Part shown: piece by piece, positions 38,721 to 59,495 of the stretch
Numbering within the stretch: the stretch's first letter is position 1
How the letters are laid out: each line of letters opens with the position of its first letter
Source: a virus
Taxonomy: Duplodnaviria; Caudoviricetes
IMG/VR virus record: IMGVR_UViG_3300020454_000016
Location: 1 to 59,495 of that record
Reading direction: 5' to 3' (one strand)
DNA: 59,495 nt
Notes under the pieces: generated by a model
Databases searched by the model: none
Seen by the model: the letters and a program-made list of their open reading frames with translations, nothing else
What the model was told of the DNA's origin: nothing
Program-made: the position numbers and the translations under genes

Positions 38721-41700
38721 ATGAGAAACTTTTTTAATTATGAAGAAACAAATACACCAAATGTTTCAGATGAGATGATCTATTCTACTGAACCTATACT
38801 ACAATTAGAACAACCTGAAGATGGATCATTGTTTTCTACTGAACCTATTGATCAGAATTATATTAATTCAATTGAAACACTTGATGATGATACATTAGCA
38901 TCTGATCAACGATTAAATTCTCAACTAAGATCTTATTTAAAATTAGTTGGATATGGGGCAGTAGCTGATGAATGGGATAATGAAGAAGTTGTTAAAAAGT
39001 GGGTAACTCAAATGCGAAATATCGACTCTACAGATACAGGTATATTTGGAGAATCATTAGCTGTGCGAAGAGAGACACCTGAAAACCTACATCATTATAA
39101 AACAGCCTACGATATGTGGGATAAGTATCCTAGTATATTTCAACGATTAAAAGGAAAACATGGATCTACTATGGATGGTGTTATGGGAGCTATGGAGCAT
39201 GTTGGTAATATAATAAATCCTATAGAGAGTCCATCTAATTACATTCCCGGTGTTGTTGTTGGTAAGTTTTTAGGAAAGTATGGTGGTTCAAAAGTAATCA
39301 AAAATGTAGCTAAAGATAAACTTGTAAACACAGCAGTAGCATCTCAAAGTAAAAATATGATGCTAAAACAAATAGGCTATACTTCAATGGCAGATGCTGC
39401 TGTGGCACTAGGATTAGATGCTGTATATCAAGACTTCCAAAAGAAAGTTGGTAGGCAAGATGGCTACAATACAGTAGATGGATTTATATCACTTTTTGAG
39501 GGATTAATAGGTGGTGGAGTAGACTTAGCTTTGCATTTGCCACCAAAAGTATTAAGAAAAAGAAAATTTACAGTTGGTGGAAAAGAGTTTGATGGTTTCC
39601 TAACTAAGAAAGTAAAAACAGATGCACAAAAAGCAACGATACTTGAGAAGATAAGTTTAAAGAATGAAGAGCTAATAGACTTTTGGTCTAAAAAAACAAA
39701 AGGTGGTAGACAGTTATTAGAAGAGGACAGTCAATATGCTGATTTAGATTTTATTAAACTTTATATGTTTGGTAACAAGGATATGGGTGTCAAAGGCATG
39801 GTTGAAACTATGACAGAAGATTTAGATCTAGTTTACTTTAAAGACTTAAAAAAAGCGAGTAAAAATAAACAATTCATGGCTGCTTTTATAAAGTTAATGG
39901 ATGAATCAACTGCACCACAAATTAAAGCTGCATTTACTAAAAAGATGCGTAAAGTAGGATTTAAAGGCGAGAGTCCTTTTGCTAACAAACTAGCACAACC
40001 TACATCATGGGATGGCTTTATGAAATCACTTGCATTTACAATGTCTGATGCAGGTAAAAAATTAAATGTAGGTAGTCAAGTACAACGCATGGTGTTAAAC
40101 GATGCCAAGAGTGTAAAGTACTCTGTTGATGGTAGCAAATTAATGGAACAACTAAAAAAGATACACCCTCGCCCGTGGCACTACTTACAAGCCGCATGGA
40201 AACGAGGTGTTGTATCTACATACTCTACATCATCTTTGAACTTTAGTGGTTGGTTAGCGGCTACAGGATTAAATGCTGCTGCTGATACAGGATTAATGTT
40301 ATTACACACAGCTTTAATTCCACCTAAACTAATGGGCAATACTATTAAGCACACTTTTGATAAAGTCAATTATGGTGAAAGTAAAGTCAACATACTAGGG
40401 GATTCAATTAAAGAAGCAAAAGACATTTTTAATAATCAGATATTTAGAATAGCTAATCTGTTAGATCCTACTGCTAATAAAGAAGCTTTTTTAAAAATGT
40501 TAGAGATAGACACAGAAGGTGCAAAAGCATTAAGACATGCAATCATAGGTGGTGTTGATGTTAGAAATGTAGAGGATTTAGCAAAACAGTTTGGCTATGT
40601 AAAAGAAGTTGATGGTAAGATTGTTGGTTCGCCGCCAGCATGGATGCGAGTAAATGAAGACTACTATCTTAAATACGCACAGAAGTTAATGCTAGTTAAT
40701 ACAATAGATACATTTACAAAATCACAAGCTTATATAGGAAATTTAGATAGATATCTAAGAAACAAATATGATATGGGATTCATGGAGTTTACTAGACAGT
40801 CTGACGTAGACCTTAGAAAACAAATCAGTTCTCAAGAGTTTTTTGAAATGACAGCAGAGGTAACTGATAGAACACTTGAAGATATCTTTACTAAAAGTTA
40901 TCAGAAAGCAGGACTACCTGTTGGAATGCAAGAGATAGCTACTGCACTTGAAAAAGTAGGTGATATACCAGGTTTAGGTACACTTCTACCTTTTGGTAAA
41001 TTTATGAATAATACTTTAGCTTTATTGTATGATGGTCTAGGTGGTGGTAGCGTTAATTGGATGGCAAAAGTTGCTAAGTATGGAATGAATGCTAGATCAA
41101 TGAACATACCTGAAGGATCAGATATATTTGGTAGCTTACAAGATCAACGAAGAGTAGCAAAAGGTTTTGCAGCAGGTGGTCCCGCTCTTTTAGCAATCTC
41201 TGCATTAGGCTCAGATGAAGAAGGTGAAGGTAGTTGGTGGGATTCTACTGTAAGAGGTGCTATGCGATTATCAGCAATCGGTCAATGTGTTATACGAGAT
41301 CAAGAAAAGATAGAACAAGGACTTGCATGGGATCAAGAAATAATTGATGGTAAATTAGTATCAATTAGATATATGTTTCCATTGTCCAACTGTGCTATTT
41401 TAGGAAGAGCATATAATATAAAGAAAGGATTTAACATAAACCAAGAAACAGGTGAGAGAAGTACAGTTACTTCTTATACACCTGAATTTAAATCTGATCT
41501 TGCTGATCAATTTGTATTAGGGCAAATAACTAGAAATGCAAAATCTGTTATGAATCTTAGGGCAGTAATTGAAGATGCCTTAGATTTTCAAAATAAATCA
41601 TGGGAAGAGATTATAACTAAAACAGTAACAACTATTCCACAAAACTTAGCTACAGGATATACTAGACCTTATGGTGATGCATTTCAAAAACTATCTACAT

Positions 41701-42431
41701 ATTACTTAGGAGAAGATGATGTTAAATTAAAAGTTCCTAATAAAGCATCTTATCAAGCTATGGTATTTGGACTTACTAGGTATACAAGTAATTTAATAAG
41801 AAGTCTTACAGGTGAAAAAGAAATACTAGGTGCAGTTGAAAATAGAACCCCTTTTAGGGCAGATAAAACATATACATCAGGTGGTTGGTATGATCTGTTA
41901 GGTCTAAAGGGGCAAGGTAGAATGACCTACATGGAACAACTACTTAATAAAACAAATCTACAAGGATGGAAGCAACAAAGTAAATACCGAAGTTCTTTTA
42001 GAGATGCAGATGTGTATATGAATAGATTAGTTGCACCTCGTTTAGAGCATTCTGCTTATGCACTTTTACATGACAATGAATGGAATAAAGCATCTCAAGA
42101 TGATAAAACAAAAATGGTTCAAAATATGATATCTGATACAATGACTAGTGTATTAAACGAAACTATAAATGGTTCAGTCTTAACTAATCAAGATTTCTCA
42201 TTTGAAAAAGAAGGATTAGGAACAGAAGCATTTGCACAAAGATTAAGATTAGTAATGGAGATAGCTAAATTAAACAAAAGAGATTTTACTGAAACTATTC
42301 AAAACTTTAATAAAAGCTATGATAAAGACTTAGATGTAAAGATAAAGTTAAAAGATTTAGAGGAATTATCAACTATGGATTTAATGGAGCTAATTAATAT
42401 ATCAAAGAATATAAAAGATAAACGTCCTTAA
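38721..42431 (+). CDS. Large internal virion protein (putative)
   Basis: 1236 aa, last gene of the structural arm, PFGKFMNN motif. Confidence 0.7.
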   Translation: MRNFFNYEETNTPNVSDEMIYSTEPILQLEQPEDGSLFSTEPIDQNYINSIETLDDDTLASDQRLNSQLRSYLKLVGYGAVADEWDNEEVVKKWVTQMRNIDSTDTGIFGESLAVRRETPENLHHYKTAYDMWDKYPSIFQRLKGKHGSTMDGVMGAMEHVGNIINPIESPSNYIPGVVVGKFLGKYGGSKVIKNVAKDKLVNTAVASQSKNMMLKQIGYTSMADAAVALGLDAVYQDFQKKVGRQDGYNTVDGFISLFEGLIGGGVDLALHLPPKVLRKRKFTVGGKEFDGFLTKKVKTDAQKATILEKISLKNEELIDFWSKKTKGGRQLLEEDSQYADLDFIKLYMFGNKDMGVKGMVETMTEDLDLVYFKDLKKASKNKQFMAAFIKLMDESTAPQIKAAFTKKMRKVGFKGESPFANKLAQPTSWDGFMKSLAFTMSDAGKKLNVGSQVQRMVLNDAKSVKYSVDGSKLMEQLKKIHPRPWHYLQAAWKRGVVSTYSTSSLNFSGWLAATGLNAAADTGLMLLHTALIPPKLMGNTIKHTFDKVNYGESKVNILGDSIKEAKDIFNNQIFRIANLLDPTANKEAFLKMLEIDTEGAKALRHAIIGGVDVRNVEDLAKQFGYVKEVDGKIVGSPPAWMRVNEDYYLKYAQKLMLVNTIDTFTKSQAYIGNLDRYLRNKYDMGFMEFTRQSDVDLRKQISSQEFFEMTAEVTDRTLEDIFTKSYQKAGLPVGMQEIATALEKVGDIPGLGTLLPFGKFMNNTLALLYDGLGGGSVNWMAKVAKYGMNARSMNIPEGSDIFGSLQDQRRVAKGFAAGGPALLAISALGSDEEGEGSWWDSTVRGAMRLSAIGQCVIRDQEKIEQGLAWDQEIIDGKLVSIRYMFPLSNCAILGRAYNIKKGFNINQETGERSTVTSYTPEFKSDLADQFVLGQITRNAKSVMNLRAVIEDALDFQNKSWEEIITKTVTTIPQNLATGYTRPYGDAFQKLSTYYLGEDDVKLKVPNKASYQAMVFGLTRYTSNLIRSLTGEKEILGAVENRTPFRADKTYTSGGWYDLLGLKGQGRMTYMEQLLNKTNLQGWKQQSKYRSSFRDADVYMNRLVAPRLEHSAYALLHDNEWNKASQDDKTKMVQNMISDTMTSVLNETINGSVLTNQDFSFEKEGLGTEAFAQRLRLVMEIAKLNKRDFTETIQNFNKSYDKDLDVKIKLKDLEELSTMDLMELINISKNIKDKRP

Positions 42432-42432
42432 T

Positions 42433-42465
42433 AAAAAAAGGGGGCAGTAAATTAATACCACCCCC
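42433..42465 (-). terminator. Intrinsic terminator ending the minus-strand arm
   Basis: GGGGGUGGUA-UUAAUU-UACUGCCCCC-U7. Confidence 0.88.
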
Positions 42466-42519
42466 ACAGAGTTGACCACACAGCTACGATTGATTACAAT
42501 AAGGAAAGCAACCAATCTA
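42433..42519 (-). ncRNA. Candidate small RNA of about 85 nt with an anti-SD loop
   Basis: Own promoter at 42526-42554, 10-bp 5' hairpin with loop UUUCCUUAUU, terminator. Confidence 0.55.
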
Positions 42520-42654
42520 ATTATTAATATATATTAACTTTTCTAATTTGTCAAGTTCTTTTTTAATATTTTTTACAAGTAATTTTATTTCTTCAACCTT
42601 AACATTAATCTTTCGTTCCTTAATGAAATCTTCTGCTTCCTTTTCTATGTTCAT
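42517..42654 (-). CDS. 45-aa coiled-coil peptide (not in ORF track)
   Basis: MNIEKEAEDFIKERK...; AAGG upstream. Confidence 0.5.
   Translation of the reverse strand: MNIEKEAEDFIKERKINVKVEEIKLLVKNIKKELDKLEKLIYINN
42526..42554 (-). promoter_or_regulatory. sigma70-type promoter TTGACA-N17-TATATT
   Basis: Same -35, spacer length and -10 as the promoter at 157-185. Confidence 0.75.
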
Positions 42655-42796
42655 GTTTCTGTACCTTTTTTAACTGCTCAAAGTAAGCTTTATTAAATCC
42701 TCGTTCCCACTCTTTATTTCTGTAAGTATTCATATTATAAGGATTTGTTAAATTGCCTTTCCAAAATGCTTTGTAACCTTTATCAACTATGTTCAT
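42620..42796 (-). CDS. 58-aa protein with Rmf/CrpP-like pattern (not in ORF track)
   Basis: GYKAFWKG...NPY......EWERGF; AAGGAG SD; ATGA overlap with the upstream gene. Confidence 0.65.
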   Translation of the reverse strand: MNIVDKGYKAFWKGNLTNPYNMNTYRNKEWERGFNKAYFEQLKKVQKHEHRKGSRRFH

Positions 42797-43209
42797 TCCT
42801 TGAACTCCTTTAAGTAATTGTATGCTCTTTGTATCGTATCTAGATTGTCGCCTAGCATACCTAGTGCTGTATTACAGCAATGGCATAACCAACCTCTAAA
42901 GACCTTTTTTTCGTGATCGTGATCTAAAACAAATGAACCCATTCGGCTTGATCTATGTAAAGATATTTGTTGTTTATTTTTTTGACAGATTGGGCAAACA
43001 TGTTCAGATGTTAATGGGGGAGCAGTTTTTTTTAGCTCTTGTACTGTACGTCTACTTTCTCCTCTACATTGTTTACATTGTGGTCTTCTCCATGTGGTAG
43101 ATCCAGAAAACCATTCAAATGCTTCTTGTGGTAAGTATTTGTTACATTTAATGCAAGTTTTACCATCTGTTACATCCGTAGGCAACTCTTCAAAGAGATC
43201 ATATTGCAT
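42793..43209 (-). CDS. Endonuclease VII-like protein
   Basis: CxxC pairs, LDHDH...RGWLCHCCNTALG. Confidence 0.85.
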   Translation of the reverse strand: MQYDLFEELPTDVTDGKTCIKCNKYLPQEAFEWFSGSTTWRRPQCKQCRGESRRTVQELKKTAPPLTSEHVCPICQKNKQQISLHRSSRMGSFVLDHDHEKKVFRGWLCHCCNTALGMLGDNLDTIQRAYNYLKEFKE

Positions 43210-45114
43210 TTAAGCACCGATATCTACAACTTCACATGAATCTCCACTACAAGCAAATGTCTGACTAGAAGAGGTGGTATCCTCTTTCTCAAAGTCCTTT
43301 AACAAGCTCCAATCTATTCTAGATGGGGCTTTTTTTATTGCTTCTTCATATTCTTTTTTAGTACATTCACTATATGGTGCTTGTTGATATACGTGATCAT
43401 CTTTAGGGAAGAAAGATACACCTGACATTTCATCAAAGTGTTTGTAAACAAATGCACCAACTTCTGCCCATTCGTGATCTCTAACATAGACAGAGCAACT
43501 AGGCTTATGCTCACACCAATATCTTTGATATGTTAGCCATAACTCTAGCTGATCTATTGCAGATACATTAGATACATTTGCAGATGTACGAGGTGATTTA
43601 AATGGAAAACTAAATACAGTATTCTCATTTGGTTTGCTTACACATGGCTCACTAGGAACACCTTGTTCTTTCATAAACTGTGTAAGTGGATCGTGATTAC
43701 TACCTCTTACAGTTCTTATGTAGTACTCTGCATATCTAGGATGTATTCCACTAGCTGAATCACAAAGTTGAGATACTGTACCACTAGGCTTAACACAAGT
43801 AATTGCAGTTGATTGTGGTATACCAAACTTATCAGCATAAACTTTATTTGTATCAATAGCTACTTGCTTTAGATCTGTTAATATATGTTTCAAATCATAT
43901 GTAGAACTAGTCAATCCATTATCCATAATACCTGTAAGACTAACACCTAACAATCTTTCTTCTTCTGTATTATCTGTCCACACTTTTCTCAAATATGGGA
44001 ACTTAGTCAATGTCGCCTGTGCAGTACCTAGAATCGTTGCTAATCGCACCTTTCTCGCTAGGTCATCAGAGGTATCCTTATCACGAACTACCACCTCAGT
44101 AAGGTTACAGAACTGATATGGACGTAGTATGATCTCAGAGCATGGGTTACATCCAAAATCTATGTCTGATGTGCGTCTTCCATTCTTCTCAGCTTGCTTT
44201 TGTGCGGCAACTCTATTGAATATACCACGTTCACCTGACTTAGACTCAACAAGTGAAGTCCACTCTCGTAAGAATGTAGCACCATCAGGCTTGTCTGTGT
44301 AGACAACACTATTATTAGCCATACTCATGTGTGGTGCAGTTTCATAAAACTTGCCTGACTTAGCATGACGCATTCTTATATCAGACAAATTAGACAAACT
44401 AATCATGGCTGACCGGCGTACTCCACCTGATACAACTACATCACCAACTTTACACATTAAACTGTGACACTCATACGAATTAAGCTTTCGTCCTTTAGCA
44501 TTCTCAAATGTATTGATAGCAAATTGAAACAGTTGCACTAAAGGTCCGGGTCCAGATGCAGTACCACCAAATGTCTTCAATCTAGATCCCGCAGGACGTA
44601 TCTTTGATACATCGTATATAGGTATTTCACCTGCGTATAAAAGTGAAATCAATACTCGTAATGCTTTTGCCCAACCTTCTTTGCTATCCTTAACTTTAAT
44701 ACATGTGTCTGACTTATATAATTTATTAGGAACATCAGGTAACTTCTCTACATACTGTCTTTCCACACTAAAGCCAACACCTGTACCACACAGCAATATG
44801 TACATAGCTTCATCAAATGATTTAGGATCATCAACAGGCAAGTAAGCACAGTTGTATCCCGCAGTATTGTCACGATCAAGTGCAACACCCGCAGTCATTA
44901 ATGCTCTCATAGATGGCATTACCTGTAGGCTATGTATCGCTTCCCACAGATATCCTTTAGTAGCATTATCAATATTAATTTTGCTACATAAGTAATCCAT
45001 GTACCTTGATACTGTTTCTGTCCACGTTTCTCTTCTGTTTTCTTCAGCAATCCATCTTGCATAGCGAGAAACAGCTATGAAGTTTTGGTAATCAGTTGGT
45101 AGTGCGTTTGTCAT
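43210..45114 (-). CDS. nrdJ: Ribonucleotide reductase, class II (adenosylcobalamin-dependent)
   Basis: MPSMR, YNC, GGVRRSA, NPCSEI, CNL, TCVKPSGT, C-terminal CSGDSC; no small-subunit gene. Confidence 0.9.
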   Translation of the reverse strand: MTNALPTDYQNFIAVSRYARWIAEENRRETWTETVSRYMDYLCSKINIDNATKGYLWEAIHSLQVMPSMRALMTAGVALDRDNTAGYNCAYLPVDDPKSFDEAMYILLCGTGVGFSVERQYVEKLPDVPNKLYKSDTCIKVKDSKEGWAKALRVLISLLYAGEIPIYDVSKIRPAGSRLKTFGGTASGPGPLVQLFQFAINTFENAKGRKLNSYECHSLMCKVGDVVVSGGVRRSAMISLSNLSDIRMRHAKSGKFYETAPHMSMANNSVVYTDKPDGATFLREWTSLVESKSGERGIFNRVAAQKQAEKNGRRTSDIDFGCNPCSEIILRPYQFCNLTEVVVRDKDTSDDLARKVRLATILGTAQATLTKFPYLRKVWTDNTEEERLLGVSLTGIMDNGLTSSTYDLKHILTDLKQVAIDTNKVYADKFGIPQSTAITCVKPSGTVSQLCDSASGIHPRYAEYYIRTVRGSNHDPLTQFMKEQGVPSEPCVSKPNENTVFSFPFKSPRTSANVSNVSAIDQLELWLTYQRYWCEHKPSCSVYVRDHEWAEVGAFVYKHFDEMSGVSFFPKDDHVYQQAPYSECTKKEYEEAIKKAPSRIDWSLLKDFEKEDTTSSSQTFACSGDSCEVVDIGA

Positions 45115-45265
45115 GTGTCACCTTTATACTTTTAATTTCAATTCCATCAACATCAAAGATTAAATCTTCAATGGTGCTTTGTATAGCATCCTCTATGTCA
45201 TCATCAATAGGAAGTATATTCTCTTCCTCATCAATGTCAAGCATTAAGAATACTTTAACTTTCAT
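45092..45265 (-). CDS. 57-aa acidic protein (not in ORF track)
   Basis: MKVKVFLMLDIDEEEN...; GAGG SD; fills the gap between DUF3310 and nrdJ. Confidence 0.65.
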   Translation of the reverse strand: MKVKVFLMLDIDEEENILPIDDDIEDAIQSTIEDLIFDVDGIEIKSIKVTHDKRTTN

Positions 45266-45539
45266 CTACTTCCTCAATCATTTTTTGTAGATAAAATAAT
45301 GCTTTCTGTAAATCTTCTCTTCCATTCTTATATCTATATCTCCACAAATATTTTAATATGTTTCCTTGTAAATAATATTGATACCCCTCACCTGTTGCGG
45401 CTCGTATCGCATCTAAACATTCTATACCATGTTGATTGTAATGAGGTGGATTATTTACCATGTCTTCTAAATTAGGTGTAAATGCATCCTCTGTATACTT
45501 ACCATCAAACTCTTCTATAGCCATTATACTTGCCCCCAA
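45255..45539 (-). CDS. DUF3310-family protein
   Basis: VNNPPHY..IECLDAI..GNILKYLWR..KNGREDLQKA. Confidence 0.85.
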   Translation of the reverse strand: MGASIMAIEEFDGKYTEDAFTPNLEDMVNNPPHYNQHGIECLDAIRAATGEGYQYYLQGNILKYLWRYRYKNGREDLQKALFYLQKMIEEVDES

Positions 45540-45877
45540 TCAATTGTTATTACATTACCTTTTTTAGAAACTACTTTTGGATTACTCTTTACTTTATGTT
45601 CAAGTGCATCATGTTTATCCATCTCCTCATGGACTTGAGCTTCATGTTCTTCTTTGTTTTTAGCATGAACTTTAGCTAAGAAATTTTTATCTTCAGTCAT
45701 CATTGTAATACATGTTCTAAGTAAACTCATCATTTTAAGAACATTGTCTATGGCTTCTTTGCCATACATGTTATCTTCAGAATAAAATAATTTAATATCT
45801 ACATTGCCATCCCACGTACCATCCTTTTCTGTGCATCTAATAATAAGGGCAAAATCATTTTCGTTTATCACGTACAT
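45524..45877 (-). CDS. Hypothetical protein
   Basis: Coupled ORF ending in GNVITIDW. Confidence 0.7.
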   Translation of the reverse strand: MYVINENDFALIIRCTEKDGTWDGNVDIKLFYSEDNMYGKEAIDNVLKMMSLLRTCITMMTEDKNFLAKVHAKNKEEHEAQVHEEMDKHDALEHKVKSNPKVVSKKGNVITIDWGQV

Positions 45878-46262
45878 TATTTTTTTCCTTTAACCATTTA
45901 AGAGGTATAATCCTCGTTGCATATTTAAGATTGTTTTTATCACACCACATACCATAGGTAGTCTTGCTTCCTTTATATAGTTTATTTCTTTCGTTTGTAA
46001 AGACAAATCGAATATCTAATTCTGGATGTTGCTTTTGTACCTCAATATGTTTTCTACGATCCTCACTAGTAAACAGTCCTTTTGTTTCAATAATAATACC
46101 ATTATCTAAAACAAAGTCAGGAGTGTATACTCTAAAACGTACATCTGTCCATTTGATCTTGAACTCTTCATAGCGAACACAAGACTCATGCTCTTGTATA
46201 AACTCTGCTACTTTTTCTTCTAGACCACTACGATACTTACGTTTATTGTGTCTTCTTCTCAT
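45855..46262 (-). CDS. Endonuclease I (T7 gp3-like resolvase)
   Basis: YRSGLE, YTPDF, IETKG, DIRFVF. Confidence 0.92.
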   Translation of the reverse strand: MRRRHNKRKYRSGLEEKVAEFIQEHESCVRYEEFKIKWTDVRFRVYTPDFVLDNGIIIETKGLFTSEDRRKHIEVQKQHPELDIRFVFTNERNKLYKGSKTTYGMWCDKNNLKYATRIIPLKWLKEKNNVRDKRK

Positions 46263-50116: not shown

Positions 50117-51337
50117 TCAAGGTATATAAAATGATTTCTCTTTATCTAAACGACAAGTAACTGTACCATGCCATCCATTCAACTTATTCTTAGACACAAC
50201 AATATGTCTTATATCTGTTTCTTCCTCGCCTTCAAGCATGGGGTCTTTAGATAAGAGCAACATCAAATCTGTTTCTGCCGCCTTTCCTGTCTTAGACCCT
50301 TCAAGCATAGATTGATTAGGTGTGACTCTGCCCTCTGCTTCAGCAGACAATTGACTCATCCATATAATTGCACAACCATGCAACTTAGCTATGTTCCTAG
50401 CATGAATTGCCGCATCTTTCAAGTACACATCAGACTTATCACTTGTACGCATAGCAAACTTGTCACCCATATCTAACACAACAATGTCAGGCTTAGTTGC
50501 TTTGATTGTCAACTCAACGTAGTCCATGTACAAACCTGTACAATCTTTGATGGTCAGCCTATCTGTTACTTTCTTATATAACATCCCTGCTTTAGCCGGA
50601 TTGTTCTTGATTGCTTTCATGTCCATTCCTGTTGTTGCAGTTAAGTATCGTGAACCGACACGATGATATGCTTCTTCATTAGTTAATATAATGCATCTTG
50701 CTCCTTGTTCAACAAAGCCACCAGGACCTGCTATTATTGATGCCTGAAACGATGTTTTACCTGTGTTAGGTCTTGCACCAATCATAACCAAATGCCCATC
50801 GCTGATGCCCTCTATTCTTTGTTTGAGAGTAGGTAGATTGAACTTCCACTTAGCTTCAAGATCATTAAGACGCAAAAGTGTTTCAATGCTTATGTCTTCC
50901 CAATCAATTTCAATATTAGGTAAAAAGTCATCATTGTGTTTATGTATTATCTTACGTAAAGGTTCTAACGAATTGGTCTTACCATTAACATAATCAAATC
51001 CTATGTTTGCAATCTCCTCGCCTAACATCTGCCTAAATAAACTAGATAGCACATCACTAGCTATTTCTTTGTCCATAGCTTTCTGCTTACTTAACTTAAA
51101 AAACAGATTAGTATACACTTCTCTGTTGGCAGTTGTCATTGTTGGATTGTTAGCCATAAATAAAGCTTGTAACTCATCTACAGTTAAATCCTTTTCGTAC
51201 TTCTTCATTGAATAGTCCAAGACTTGTTTAATCTTGACTACATCTTTAGAAAATATTTTATCAGGTGACTTAGCACCTTTGTGTTCATCATAGAACTTTT
51301 TATCCATGAGTGATCTTATTAAAGCCAACTCTGTCAT
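50117..51337 (-). CDS. Replicative helicase (DnaB/SF4)
   Basis: GARPNTGKT, VVLD, SQL, KNK..G. Confidence 0.9.
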   Translation of the reverse strand: MTELALIRSLMDKKFYDEHKGAKSPDKIFSKDVVKIKQVLDYSMKKYEKDLTVDELQALFMANNPTMTTANREVYTNLFFKLSKQKAMDKEIASDVLSSLFRQMLGEEIANIGFDYVNGKTNSLEPLRKIIHKHNDDFLPNIEIDWEDISIETLLRLNDLEAKWKFNLPTLKQRIEGISDGHLVMIGARPNTGKTSFQASIIAGPGGFVEQGARCIILTNEEAYHRVGSRYLTATTGMDMKAIKNNPAKAGMLYKKVTDRLTIKDCTGLYMDYVELTIKATKPDIVVLDMGDKFAMRTSDKSDVYLKDAAIHARNIAKLHGCAIIWMSQLSAEAEGRVTPNQSMLEGSKTGKAAETDLMLLLSKDPMLEGEEETDIRHIVVSKNKLNGWHGTVTCRLDKEKSFYIP

Positions 51338-52131
51338 GCTAACACCTCTTTCAATCCTTCTATGTCCTCTACTCTCTTATATTTTATGTCATCTGTCAAG
51401 GGGTAGGCAGTTACTTCAGAAACATAATTCTTTAATTCCTTTGTGTAAGCAACTGTCTTACTCCTTGCGTCAGGGTCTAGGGCAACTACACAATGCTCAT
51501 ACTTAGATAGGAAATCAATGTGTCGATGATTGAGATTAGTACCCAATATGGCAACACCATCAACATCAGGAAAACAATCATAGACTACTAGAGATGACAC
51601 AACGTCCTCAACTATGATTGCTTTCTTTCTTCCTTTCCACGTATGTTGCACATAGTAGTCTGCCCTACCACTATAACGTAGCCATTTCGGATGCCCCCCA
51701 ACCAAGCTACGTCCTATAGCATCTATTAATGTACCATTCTCATTTCTAAGAGGAAAAACAAGACGATCATCTTTTACATCGTACATAATATATGATGCTG
51801 ATAAGTTTTTATGCAACCCCCACCTAGACATGAAAGCCTTGATGATAGGTTTGCTTATGTCATGTGTTACGTGTGGTGGCATTTGAAACTCCTCAACATT
51901 GCCACGTGGCAAACTTGGACTTTTATTCATAAGATTGTATATGTCTTCACGATTTAATCCCACAGAAACTTTTCCTTTTGACCCACACGATACTCTATAG
52001 CAGTTGAATACAATAATGCCATCCACCTTAGATGCAGTAAATGTATTCTTGCCTTTACACAAAGGGCAATCTCCTCTGTAGCTATCGCCCTCACTAATAT
52101 GTAAATCATTTATATATGTATTTATAAACAT
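51334..52131 (-). CDS. DNA primase (zinc finger plus TOPRIM)
   Basis: CPLC...CYRVSC; IVED; ALDPDA. Confidence 0.88.
   Translation of the reverse strand: MFINTYINDLHISEGDSYRGDCPLCKGKNTFTASKVDGIIVFNCYRVSCGSKGKVSVGLNREDIYNLMNKSPSLPRGNVEEFQMPPHVTHDISKPIIKAFMSRWGLHKNLSASYIMYDVKDDRLVFPLRNENGTLIDAIGRSLVGGHPKWLRYSGRADYYVQHTWKGRKKAIIVEDVVSSLVVYDCFPDVDGVAILGTNLNHRHIDFLSKYEHCVVALDPDARSKTVAYTKELKNYVSEVTAYPLTDDIKYKRVEDIEGLKEVLA
51894..51917 (-). repeat. 24-bp quasi-palindrome copy 4, inside the primase gene
   Basis: Exact match; encodes PSLPRGNV in the linker region. Confidence 0.97.
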
Positions 52132-53321: not shown

Positions 53322-53345
53322 CAACATTGCCACGTGGCAAACTTG
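53322..53345 (-). repeat. 24-bp quasi-palindrome copy 5, upstream of the integrase SD
   Basis: Exact match, 4 nt before AGGAG. Confidence 0.97.
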
Positions 53346-54707: not shown

Positions 54708-55878
54708 TATATACCTCTAACCATTTAGGATCATAAGACTTCTTGTTCTCGCCTATGTACTCATGTGAATAACATATGCGTTTCTTTTCTAGTGGAAAGT
54801 GATGCCAACTCTTACTGTTGCCACTCTTTGATCTGTCCACCAAGTTTGTAGCAGTTGGTCGCCATAATGGTGACTTCTGCCTATACTCGCCCATGCGTAT
54901 GTGACTAGTCTTAGAGAAATATCGTAAGCCTTGTTCAATATGCATGTCAGCAATCGTATCAGATAATCGTGTACCTAAACCAATACCTTGAAAGTCAGGT
55001 AGACATACTGTCCTACACTCTCGCCACTTCAAACGAATGTCGCCCTCATATAAACCGGGGGTACGACCGGGTAGACAGATAGATGATGCGAATGCTACAA
55101 GTTCATCTCCCCACTTAGCTATCCATGAACGAGTAGCATGTGGTAGCTTGTGATTTAGATAGTGATGGTTCTTAAACATTTCCCATTTGTCTCGCTGACA
55201 TCTGTAAATACTAAGTTCAATTGTGGGTCTGATCCATCGCCTTTGTGACCCCCTCGACACAAGCTGTTTTGTGTCTGTGTTATATACCCAATCTGGCTCA
55301 AGCCATTCAATAATGTCATCATGGCACGATGCAAATACGATGTGCGATAGTCCTTGCTTACGTATGTACTTAGCCACACTAGAACTGCATGACTTAGCCA
55401 CATTACGATTGACTACGGATGTGAACTCATCAATTACTGAACCATAAGCTAGTTTACGAGCCAAATCTGCCCTGAACCCCTCACCATTTGATACGACATG
55501 TCTAGGTTTAGCCCATGTAGGCACACTATTCAAGCCAACTGCACTCAATCTCTCAATGGCATCATCTACACTACCGAAATGACTAGCAATTGATTTATCA
55601 TCTATCCACATAGGTTTGTACTCTTCACCAAACTGTTTCAAGATTGATGACTTACCTGACCCACTTGATCCTACGATCAAACCTATGTTGAACTCTAATG
55701 GATTGCCATTATCATAGGTCATTATCTGATCATGTAAGTTAGGCACTTCAAATGAAGTTGTATAAGTATCTCCCTCGTGATCATGGAATAGATCAAAGAG
55801 TTTGTATATCTTTTTGTCTACATCTGTAGCTTGTATGCTACTCGTTAGTATCTCACTCATAGTCTTTCTCCTGTGCAT
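54679..55878 (-). CDS. ABC-type ATPase fused to a GNAT (Mom-like) domain
   Basis: GSSGSGKS, VSNGE signature, IDEFTS, SCH; then HHYL and RTVCLPDFQGIGLG acetyl-CoA loop. Confidence 0.8.
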   Translation of the reverse strand: MHRRKTMSEILTSSIQATDVDKKIYKLFDLFHDHEGDTYTTSFEVPNLHDQIMTYDNGNPLEFNIGLIVGSSGSGKSSILKQFGEEYKPMWIDDKSIASHFGSVDDAIERLSAVGLNSVPTWAKPRHVVSNGEGFRADLARKLAYGSVIDEFTSVVNRNVAKSCSSSVAKYIRKQGLSHIVFASCHDDIIEWLEPDWVYNTDTKQLVSRGSQRRWIRPTIELSIYRCQRDKWEMFKNHHYLNHKLPHATRSWIAKWGDELVAFASSICLPGRTPGLYEGDIRLKWRECRTVCLPDFQGIGLGTRLSDTIADMHIEQGLRYFSKTSHIRMGEYRQKSPLWRPTATNLVDRSKSGNSKSWHHFPLEKKRICYSHEYIGENKKSYDPKWLEVYNESRKDKVQ

Positions 55879-57941: not shown

Positions 57942-58446
57942 CACCGATCTCCTTTCTTGGAATGTACTGACAGTTATAGTTAAGCCAAATGTGTGCTTCC
58001 TCTATCTTATCAAAAATAGGTGGCAAGTACCATGTTGCCCCATCCCAATTGATACGAGCCAAACTCCACGATGGTTTATACTTTTTAACTTGCTCCATTT
58101 TAAGACTAGACATAGACCACTCCATTGATGTGTAGCCAATCATCTTACAATAGATATGCATCTGTGCAGTATTAACTAAATCATCAATCATTTTGTCATT
58201 GATGTACGGATACTTTTCTACATCAAACAGATAGTCCATTGCATACAGTAGATTTTGTTTTGCATCTTGAATATCCCAAGATGTAGCATATCGCATTTCA
58301 TCTACTAACTTGTGACCTAATGGCTGACGATTGATTTTGTGATCGACACGTTGCAAGACCATGAAGACATCTACCTTATTGTTCTTGCGTTGATGTGCGA
58401 GGGTAGACTTCACACACCTATGAATGCGTTCTAAATGAGTAGTCAT
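57925..58446 (-). CDS. Hypothetical early protein
   Basis: 173-codon coupled ORF. Confidence 0.75.
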   Translation of the reverse strand: MTTHLERIHRCVKSTLAHQRKNNKVDVFMVLQRVDHKINRQPLGHKLVDEMRYATSWDIQDAKQNLLYAMDYLFDVEKYPYINDKMIDDLVNTAQMHIYCKMIGYTSMEWSMSSLKMEQVKKYKPSWSLARINWDGATWYLPPIFDKIEEAHIWLNYNCQYIPRKEIGVDNYE

Positions 58447-58886
58447 TATGCTACCTTCCTTTTCTTGCCTTCTTTAATTAAGGTTTGTTGCTCCAACTCT
58501 TTCATAGCAGTTGCTAACTTTCTGAAATTATGAGAGGTGAAATTTTCTGGCTCTTTATTCAAGAACTTCCACCTAGAGATTGCTCGCATCTTTTCTACAC
58601 AAGTTCTACGTGCTTGCTCCTTCTTTGATAGAGTAGGATGAGCTTGATTTGCAATCAACAGATCAATGATATAGTCAACTTGCCAATATCTTTTCTGCAA
58701 CTTTTTAGCAATCTCCTTTTTGTTCAAGCCTTCCTTGAGAAGAAGAGATATTTTGTGCATTGATATTGAGTAATCCTCTTCCCCCGCTTTTCTCTTACGT
58801 GTCCAATCATACGCACCCGTATCTCTGATCTTTTTAGTTACTGCAATTTCATCTTCAGTTAGTATATTTTTAATTGTGAATGGCAT
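58446..58886 (-). CDS. Helix-turn-helix DNA-binding protein (putative regulator)
   Basis: LLKEGLNKKEIAKKLQKRYWQVDYII HTH pattern; AAGGAGG SD. Confidence 0.65.
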   Translation of the reverse strand: MPFTIKNILTEDEIAVTKKIRDTGAYDWTRKRKAGEEDYSISMHKISLLLKEGLNKKEIAKKLQKRYWQVDYIIDLLIANQAHPTLSKKEQARRTCVEKMRAISRWKFLNKEPENFTSHNFRKLATAMKELEQQTLIKEGKKRKVA

Positions 58887-58902: not shown

Positions 58903-58926
58903 TAAGTTTGCCACGTGGCAATGTTG
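58903..58926 (+). repeat. 24-bp quasi-palindrome copy 6 (23/24 match)
   Basis: TAAGTTTGCCACGTGGCAATGTTG between the promoter and SD of the HTH gene. Confidence 0.97.
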
Positions 58927-58961: not shown

Positions 58962-58990
58962 AATATAGCACATCTGTTTATGTAAGTAAA
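58962..58990 (-). promoter_or_regulatory. sigma70-type promoter TTTACT-N17-TATATT
   Basis: 17-bp spacer; same TGCTATATTAA as the promoter at 157-185. Confidence 0.65.
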
Positions 58991-59426: not shown

Positions 59427-59495
59427 TTAATGCTCCGATAAATGTACGATTGATTGACGATTGATAACAGTAGATGAAAAGCACCCACCCTTACA
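59427..59495 (-). CDS. C-terminal fragment of a gene entering from the window end (...CKGGCFSSTVINRQSIVHLSEH)
   Basis: Open frame whose TAA abuts the ATG at 59425. Confidence 0.45.
   Translation of the reverse strand, partial: CKGGCFSSTVINRQSIVHLSEH

Follow-up and report, generated by a model that had tools for sequence, protein, structure and literature searches.

A conserved structured RNA element at the gene-arm junction of an HMO-2011-type marine phage as a candidate small RNA

We describe a structured element located on the minus strand at the junction of the two convergent gene arms of an HMO-2011-type marine podophage, between a promoter-like site that begins at position 42554 and a terminator that ends at 42433. 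The pattern of its conservation indicates that the element is functional and that it acts as an RNA of the minus strand. As for the kind of RNA, we see about an even chance that it is a clade-specific phage sRNA of the 3'-UTR-derived, own-promoter kind, representing a new family, in which the invariant linker between the two hairpins would be the seed.

Architecture and genomic setting of the element

The 59,495 bases analysed here (the window) make up a complete virus record, with a G+C content of about 30–39%. According to the ORF map, its plus-strand gene arm ends at 42431 and its minus-strand arm at 42517. The minus arm encodes a B12-dependent ribonucleotide reductase (RNR), which shows 62–69% identity to the RNRs of Roseobacter phages (CRP-1, -2, -13, -207, -235, -345 and -603) and Puniceispirillum phage HMO-2011. 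Two further products of this arm were identified by Pfam, one as a DnaB-like helicase and the other as an Endo VII-like nuclease. The window phage is an HMO-2011-type marine podophage; this group is described as including low-G+C subgroups whose hosts are unknown or predicted (PMC9438474).

The minus-strand module that leads to the junction consists of the RNR gene, the Endo VII-like nuclease gene, a conserved 58-aa ORF without a Pfam family (42620–42796), an ORF of 40–45 aa and then the RNA element. Upstream of the RNR gene lies a promoter-like site, TTGACA-16-TATACT (45213–45240, minus strand), in which 4 of 25 columns vary in the bin and which is likely the promoter of the module closed by the element's terminator. 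The conserved block has sharp edges on both sides and runs from the RNR promoter region (~45495) through the terminator (42433); outside it, the upstream genes (45524–46262) and the 3' end of the convergent gene are 60–95% variable. The RNR block suggests a module that is exchanged among these phages.

Read on the minus strand, the element opens with hairpin 1, whose 5' arm, GAUUGGUUGC (42508–42517), begins at the predicted transcript start (~42518/42517) and is followed by a loop of 10 nt, UUUCCUUAUU (42498–42507), and by the 3' arm identified by folding, GUAAUCAAUC (42488–42497). A single-stranded linker of 22 nt, CGUAGCUGUGUGGUCAACUCUG(U) (42466–42487), which is unpaired in the centroid folds, leads to a G+C-rich terminator hairpin of 10 bp (42440–42465) and a U7 tract (42433–42439), at which the RNA would end, 2 nt off the stop codon of the convergent plus-strand gene (42431). 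This succession of a G+C-rich hairpin and a U tract, on the strand that is transcribed, is what characterizes an intrinsic terminator. Hairpin 1 comprises 10 bp, including two G-U pairs on the minus strand. For the 86-nt minus-strand RNA, the predicted folding energy is -29 kcal/mol (z = -4.2 to -4.4), which none of 200 shuffled sequences attains; the minimum-free-energy fold of the plus strand lacks hairpin 1. A U tract adjoins the terminator hairpin on the minus strand only, the plus strand reading ACAGAG after the hairpin. The element is single-copy in the window, as determined by a covariance-model search.

An initial annotation of this DNA had noted a TTGACA-N17-TATATT promoter about 85 nt before a strong terminator, a stem whose two G-U pairs favour this strand and the lack of any plausible ORF in between. 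All of these features were found again: the two hexamers and the terminator are where they were reported, with the terminator ~86 nt downstream, the stem is present on the minus strand, where alone the stem substitutions keep pairing, and the only frame between start and terminator is one that starts with TTG and is broken by 1-nt indels in relatives. The description of the RNA as stand-alone is inexact, because the promoter lies within a 45-aa ORF and the RNA forms the 3' end of the RNR module. Thus, given the intragenic promoter and the U tract confined to the minus strand, we regard the element as the 3' end of a minus-arm module and not as an isolated gene.

The TTG-started frame (42515 to 42402) could be read as encoding a small hydrophobic peptide of 37 aa, since it is open in the window and in two relatives (L005 and L006) with the common stretch VINRSCVVNS, but this stretch is common because the nucleotides are invariant. 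Moreover, the frame is not preceded by a Shine-Dalgarno (SD) sequence, crosses the terminator and extends beyond the RNA end, varies in length (37, 70 and 31 aa) and is broken by 1-nt indels in the loop (in L017) and in the terminator arm, which makes such a peptide extremely unlikely. Coding readings on either strand were rejected on account of the frame-breaking indels.

For the large structural operon of the plus strand, which ends in this region (42429–42470), the shared hairpin has no U tract behind it. Late transcription may therefore continue past the hairpin, crossing the element in antisense and entering the replication arm.

Occurrence and sequence constraint among relatives

The Endo VII-like protein used as a query identified 5 IMG/VR loci, and the 58-aa ORF identified 8 IMG/VR contigs, which were recovered independently of the linker and contained the element in all eight cases. 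A linker 21-mer returned those 8 IMG/VR contigs again together with 9 metagenome contigs, and a pattern describing hairpin 1 only returned them along with two unrelated hairpins. In the genome collection, the linker 21-mer matched a single record, a MAG contig with the matching phage gene order. This contig (L025, PAZU01000016.1) is binned in an archaeal MAG and carries the RNR gene, the Endo VII-like gene, the 58-aa ORF, a 40-aa ORF and the element in order; it is probably a mis-binned phage contig. After the removal of duplicates, 10 distinct versions of the element were available, that of the window included. Three sequences (L017, L018 and L025) came solely via the linker pattern and are biased towards an intact linker, while the IMG/VR sequences are free of this bias. 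The element is present in every relative found.

A host origin of the element and an attachment site were considered and rejected: in the genome collection, the linker 21-mer occurs in the phage-like MAG contig and in no other bacterial-genome record, and the window contains no tRNA genes. The suggestion that the RNA is expressed in a lysogen is without support, because Pfam identified no integrase domain in the sole candidate ORF tested (653–1591) and the 21-mer has no bacterial copy beyond that contig.

Sequence constraint was assessed in an alignment of 11 distinct sequences extending from the 3' part of the RNR gene through the convergent gene. Since the whole RNR module is conserved, synonymous sites inside the block served as the yardstick. 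Third codon positions are variable at 61 of 125 columns in the RNR gene, 84 of 138 in the Endo VII-like gene and 27 of 58 in the 58-aa ORF, and past the U tract the 3' end of the convergent gene varies at 125 of 131 columns. The corresponding values within the element are 2 of 10 columns for each arm of hairpin 1, 2 of 22 for the linker (both adjoining the terminator), 3 of 26 for the terminator hairpin and 9 of 10 for the loop. A run of 27 nt (42494–42468) that spans the 3' arm and the linker, with 20 nt (42487–42468) in the linker itself, is invariant, compared with 47–61% variable third codon positions in the neighbouring genes. The 3' arm and the linker are thus constrained far more than nearby synonymous sites, and the loop evolves freely.

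Pairing is retained across the 10 distinct variants: all 200 base-pair cells hold a standard pair, compared with 34–68.5% after a shift of the 3' partners by 1–3 columns. A share of 100% was obtained in 6 of 500 column shuffles. Seven pairs of hairpin 1 are constant and three vary one-sidedly, always via a G-U wobble (at two positions from G-U to A-U, and also from G-U to G-C and from U-A to U-G). The two variable columns of the 5' arm show G-to-A substitutions that turn G-U into A-U pairs, and the two of the 3' arm vary only in L017, in which the changes G-U to G-C and U-A to U-G also keep the pairing. Such switches maintain pairing only in the minus-strand RNA and therefore fit the minus strand alone. 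In the terminator, one compensatory change from a G-C to an A-U pair is present in 3 of the 10 variants and probably represents a single event. Most sequences come from one narrow clade, and their effective number is 1.15; because the variants are such close relatives and offer one double change, the covariation evidence is consistent but thin. The expectation that both stem and loop would be conserved in relatives is thus borne out for the stem and fails for the loop.

The same data bear on the possibility that the element is a DNA-level site at the arm junction, which might bind a protein, form part of an origin or provide a cis signal of another type. Invariance at the nucleotide level at a structural landmark of the genome would agree with a site of this type, as would the number of AATCAATCGT-like 10-mers in the window (9 versus 4.9 expected; 5 of 100 shuffles reach 9). 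However, the stem changes obey RNA wobble rules on one strand, the block lies exactly between the promoter-like site and the terminator, there is no repeat array at the block, and a plus-strand promoter candidate, TTGACC-17-TACAAT, was rejected because its -10 is lost in relatives (TACGAA or TCGCAA). We consider a DNA-level site very unlikely.

As a separate observation, AATCAATCGT is the sequence of the 3' arm of the putative sRNA, and 8 of the 9 similar 10-mers are on the minus strand, mostly in the replication arm, including 59446–59466 (two in tandem), 58327–58336 and 55405–55414. On the plus strand, TTGACCACA resembles a DnaA box at 7 of 9 positions, which would also agree with a DNA-level site.

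Candidate seeds, promoter and possible functions

If the element is an sRNA, a key question is which of its segments would recognize a target. The initial annotation had placed this function in the C/U-rich loop, which would silence early genes by pairing with the SD sequence AAUAAGGA(A/G) behind copies 1 and 6 of a palindrome. This palindrome of 14 nt, TTGCCACGTGGCAA, occurs in six exact copies (107–120, 629–642, 1725–1738, 51899–51912, 53327–53340 and 58908–58921) compared with 0.16 expected. In two cases, the copy is flanked by a TATATT-type promoter on one side and a ribosome-binding site on the other, and the copies likely form an operator set for a regulator. The palindrome was absent from the records of the three relatives checked; the early region is missing from a 77%-complete relative, and the early gene has one IMG/VR relative, which is 97% identical.

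The sequences AATAAGGAA and AATAAGGAG follow the palindrome copies at 107–120 and 58908–58921, directly before ATG codons, and the loop could form 9–10 pairs with the ribosome-binding sites of the minus-strand genes that start at 58886 and ~83. Among 92 initiation regions, the 58886 site is the best match of the loop (-16.8 kcal/mol, reached by 2.5% of shuffled loops), and the motif CCUU is kept, with a 1-nt shift, in 6 of the 10 variants. However, this energy counts stem-closing bases that are not free to pair, and the top-five statistic (8.5%) is not significant. AATAAGGAR follows only two of the six palindrome copies, and its four occurrences in the window, one of which is the complement of the sRNA gene itself, are at chance level (2.2 expected; 21 of 100 shuffles reach 4), so the proposed complementarity is possible in the window, but at a frequency that chance would provide. 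The loop is also the least constrained segment of the element: six loop types (UUUCCUUAUU, AAUACCUUUC, UAUACCUUUC, UUAAUUCCUUU, AAUACUUUUC and AAUAUAUUUC) were found among the 10 variants, and CCUU is missing in four of them (ACUUUU and AUAUUU loops). Because of the stem-closing bases in the query, the top-five statistic and the free drift of the loop, we find it quite unlikely that an anti-SD loop is the working part of the RNA.

The invariant 3' arm and linker point instead to a seed other than the loop. Since a seed should be the most conserved part of an sRNA, the linker would be the expected one, and the hypervariable loop would be an unlikely seed. Within the phage, no exact complement of at least 11 nt to the linker was found, and duplex predictions against the 92 phage translation-initiation regions gave no significant target for it (the best energy was reached by 10.5% of shuffled linkers, and the top-five statistic was 7%). 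One lead is the site at which the DnaB-like helicase gene starts (12 contiguous pairs at -18.0 kcal/mol), where AUGACAGAGUUGGC (51322–51337, minus strand) is complementary to the invariant linker over 10–12 pairs at +4 to +15. This site is invariant in all five variants that have the gene, and nearby synonymous sites vary; it is a lead only, as shuffled linkers do as well in 7–10% of trials.

Another important question is whether the RNA could be transcribed from its own promoter. The promoter-like site lies inside the last gene of the replication arm, an ORF of 45 aa (40 aa in relatives; 42517–42654, minus strand), whose TAG stop codon (42519–42517) overlaps the first base of hairpin 1. The ORF, for which Pfam gave no family, looks real, to judge by its sequence: it is intact in all nine distinct variants examined, the substitutions are conservative, and the variable sites number 16, 7 and 19 at the three codon positions, the second varying least. 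The -35 hexamer TTGACA (as CTTGAC-A; 42549–42554, minus strand) lies within Leu-Asp-Lys codons of this ORF and is followed after 17 nt by the -10 hexamer TATATT (42526–42531), the pair matching the consensus at 11 of 12 positions. Matches of at least 11/12 number 6 in the window compared with 3.55 ± 1.87 in 100 Markov simulations, and such a match alone is not beyond chance. CTTGAC is invariant in all 10 distinct variants and is spelled by rare codons (CTT accounts for 18% of Leu and GAC for 17% of Asp codons in this phage), while the other Leu codons (29, 36 and 40) and Asp 21 of the small ORF drift synonymously. From this retention of rare codons next to drifting ones, we conclude that the -35 hexamer is under selection at the nucleotide level.

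The -10 hexamer is less uniform. In relatives, it reads TAGTTT, TAGGAT, TAATTT, TAATGT, TAATAT or TAGAGT at the identical 17-nt spacing, and the form TAnnnT (T1, A2, T6) is present in 10 of 10 variants. At least 4 of the 6 positions of TATAAT are matched in only four variants, i.e., in the window lineage (TATATT), L006 (TAGGAT) and L014 (TAATAT); in the other six, the match is 3/6, and the T-A doubles as the stop codon of the ORF. In the window lineage, one insertion of 3 nt in frame and another of 1 nt near the ORF end together extended the ORF from 40 to 45 codons and gave rise to the better -10, TATATT. The -10 context TATATTAA is common to the element and two likely early promoters (185–157 and near 58990). 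An internal promoter is therefore likely in the window on these sequence grounds, and its strength in the relatives is uncertain; with a weak -10 in six of the 10 variants, independent transcription may be weak or limited to the lineage of the window.

On the reading of the element as a 3'-UTR-derived sRNA, a sigma-70-type promoter in the last codons of the upstream ORF would fire and start the RNA at the base of hairpin 1 (~42518), and the RNR-module terminator would end it at ~42433. Alternatively, the RNA could be released from a read-through operon transcript, and the same terminal RNA would result from its own start or from processing of the operon transcript. The discrete RNA that would accumulate in this way is predicted to act in trans, with the invariant 27 nt as the seed for an equally invariant phage or host RNA, or else as a protein-binding site.

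The main rival explanation is that the element is purely the cis-acting 3' end of the RNR-module mRNA, i.e., a protective or processing hairpin ahead of an intrinsic terminator, with no trans-acting RNA and with the promoter-like site as a by-product of coding. Several results would agree with this: hairpin 1 begins right where the last ORF stops, most variants have a weak -10, chance alone would be expected to place a promoter match of such quality in the window, the search within the phage gave no significant target, and the other cultured HMO-2011-type phages checked have junctions of 27–47 nt, with room for a terminator only. However, a purely cis-acting end would leave unexplained why 27 nt, 20 of them unpaired, are invariant among synonymous sites of which 47–61% vary, and why the rare codons of the -35 hexamer are retained. 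We therefore treat it as a real but less than probable alternative to the sRNA.

The presence of the phage in RNA libraries was also surveyed. Seven RNA-labelled runs had small word shares, and the contigs of four of them were compared. Metatranscriptome contigs with 100% identity cover 41154–41320, 42119–42280, 42635–42824, 44192–44352 and 45383–45500, i.e., parts of both arms; none covers 42433–42554, and contigs of this type cannot show RNA ends. The phage or a near-identical one is thus present in the RNA libraries of one marine study, with DNA carry-over being possible.

A more far-reaching but unlikely interpretation is that the element is a clade-wide riboregulator in uncultured, low-G+C HMO-2011-type phages, whose 27-nt segment would pair with an invariant RNA (a core host transcript and the start region of the DnaB-like helicase gene being candidate partners), or, as a short promoter-driven RNA where the replication module ends, a primer or origin transcript of replication. 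If this were true, this abundant phage group would have its first described non-coding RNA with a function. Phages of the HMO-2011 type belong to the most abundant groups of marine phages. Promoters, terminators, sRNAs and non-coding elements go unmentioned in the main text of the chief comparative paper on them (PMC9438474). A non-coding element that is constrained beyond its neighbouring genes offers a concrete entry point to post-transcriptional regulation in phages that infect marine bacteria which are uncultured or grow slowly, and an invariant seed could help to identify the host by complementarity. These data also indicate that target searches are best guided by the conserved part of a candidate sRNA and not by its most suggestive loop.

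Comparison with known systems

A 5' hairpin, a conserved unpaired stretch and a U-tailed terminator form the layout of base-pairing sRNAs. Within known families, the element has no place: searches with Rfam at gathering thresholds gave 0 matches in the whole window, and those at E <= 10 gave six chance-level matches in 42380–42600 (10–17.5 bits versus gathering thresholds of 55–99), none of them to an alphaproteobacterial sRNA family. With a covariance model built from the 10 variants, the window's own copy scored 111 bits and the next match 17.5 bits (E = 0.087); the 17.5-bit match at the HMO-2011 junction was rejected as a resemblance of the terminator only, on the other strand.

The closest counterpart in organization is the Salmonella sRNA DapZ, whose promoter is located just upstream of the dapB stop codon (PMC9438474). 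E. coli MicL is of the same kind. DapZ and the element share the use of the Rho-independent terminator of the upstream gene, a length of ~80 nt and a conserved unpaired segment (PMC9438474). The features that define 3'-UTR-derived sRNAs recur here as follows: an internal promoter is present at the sequence level (an 11/12 match with an invariant -35), the shared terminator has a 10-bp G+C-rich stem and U7 with one compensatory pair, and the 27-nt invariant run corresponds to the conserved unpaired seed. The two RNAs differ in that they have no homology of sequence or structure (the DapZ model scores 17.5 bits versus a gathering threshold of 56; E = 0.75) and in that the putative RNA described here is phage-encoded.

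Similarity in layout also extends to AbcR1, in which a pyrimidine-rich first hairpin loop is followed by an unpaired region and then a terminator, and in which single-stranded anti-SD motifs (UCCC, conserved) are located in loop 1 and the linker (PMC4152367). In contrast to AbcR1, the element has two hairpins and not three, a hypervariable loop, in which UCCC occurs in no variant, and a conserved linker, GUAGCUGUGUGGUCAACUCUG, that is not C/U-rich. The cuckoo or CcsR-type sRNAs occur in several tandem copies with CCUCCUCCC-like loops; the element has a single copy in the window and no CCUCCUCCC-like motif. OOP of phage lambda is a short antisense RNA with its own promoter and terminator that overlaps the 3' end of the cII coding sequence. 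Like OOP, the element would be a short phage RNA directed towards a convergent gene, with a promoter-like site and an intrinsic terminator. In contrast to OOP, it has no overlap with the coding sequence: the RNA would end at ~42433, 2 nt beyond the convergent stop codon, which ends at 42431, and could therefore pair only with a read-through 3' UTR.

The junction itself can be compared among HMO-2011-type phages. It measures 27–47 nt in five cultured relatives, 157 nt (with a terminator) in HMO-2011 and 125 nt in Roseobacter phage CRP-235. The covariance model identified no homologue in the cultured HMO-2011-type phages searched, so the element is specific to the clade of the window. At the junction of CRP-235 (MZ892989, 6253–6360), we found an unannotated unit with a TTGACC-18-TATAAT promoter-like site (11/12) and a predicted RNA of ~75 nt that consists of a 5' hairpin, a short linker and a terminator (z = -4.25). 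This unit occupies the same place as the element described here, where the last gene of the replication arm meets the large structural gene that converges on it; it differs in that its promoter is intergenic and that no homology between the two is detectable (no covariance-model match in CRP-235). Judging from these two sequences, putative small transcription units have appeared at the arm junction on at least two occasions.
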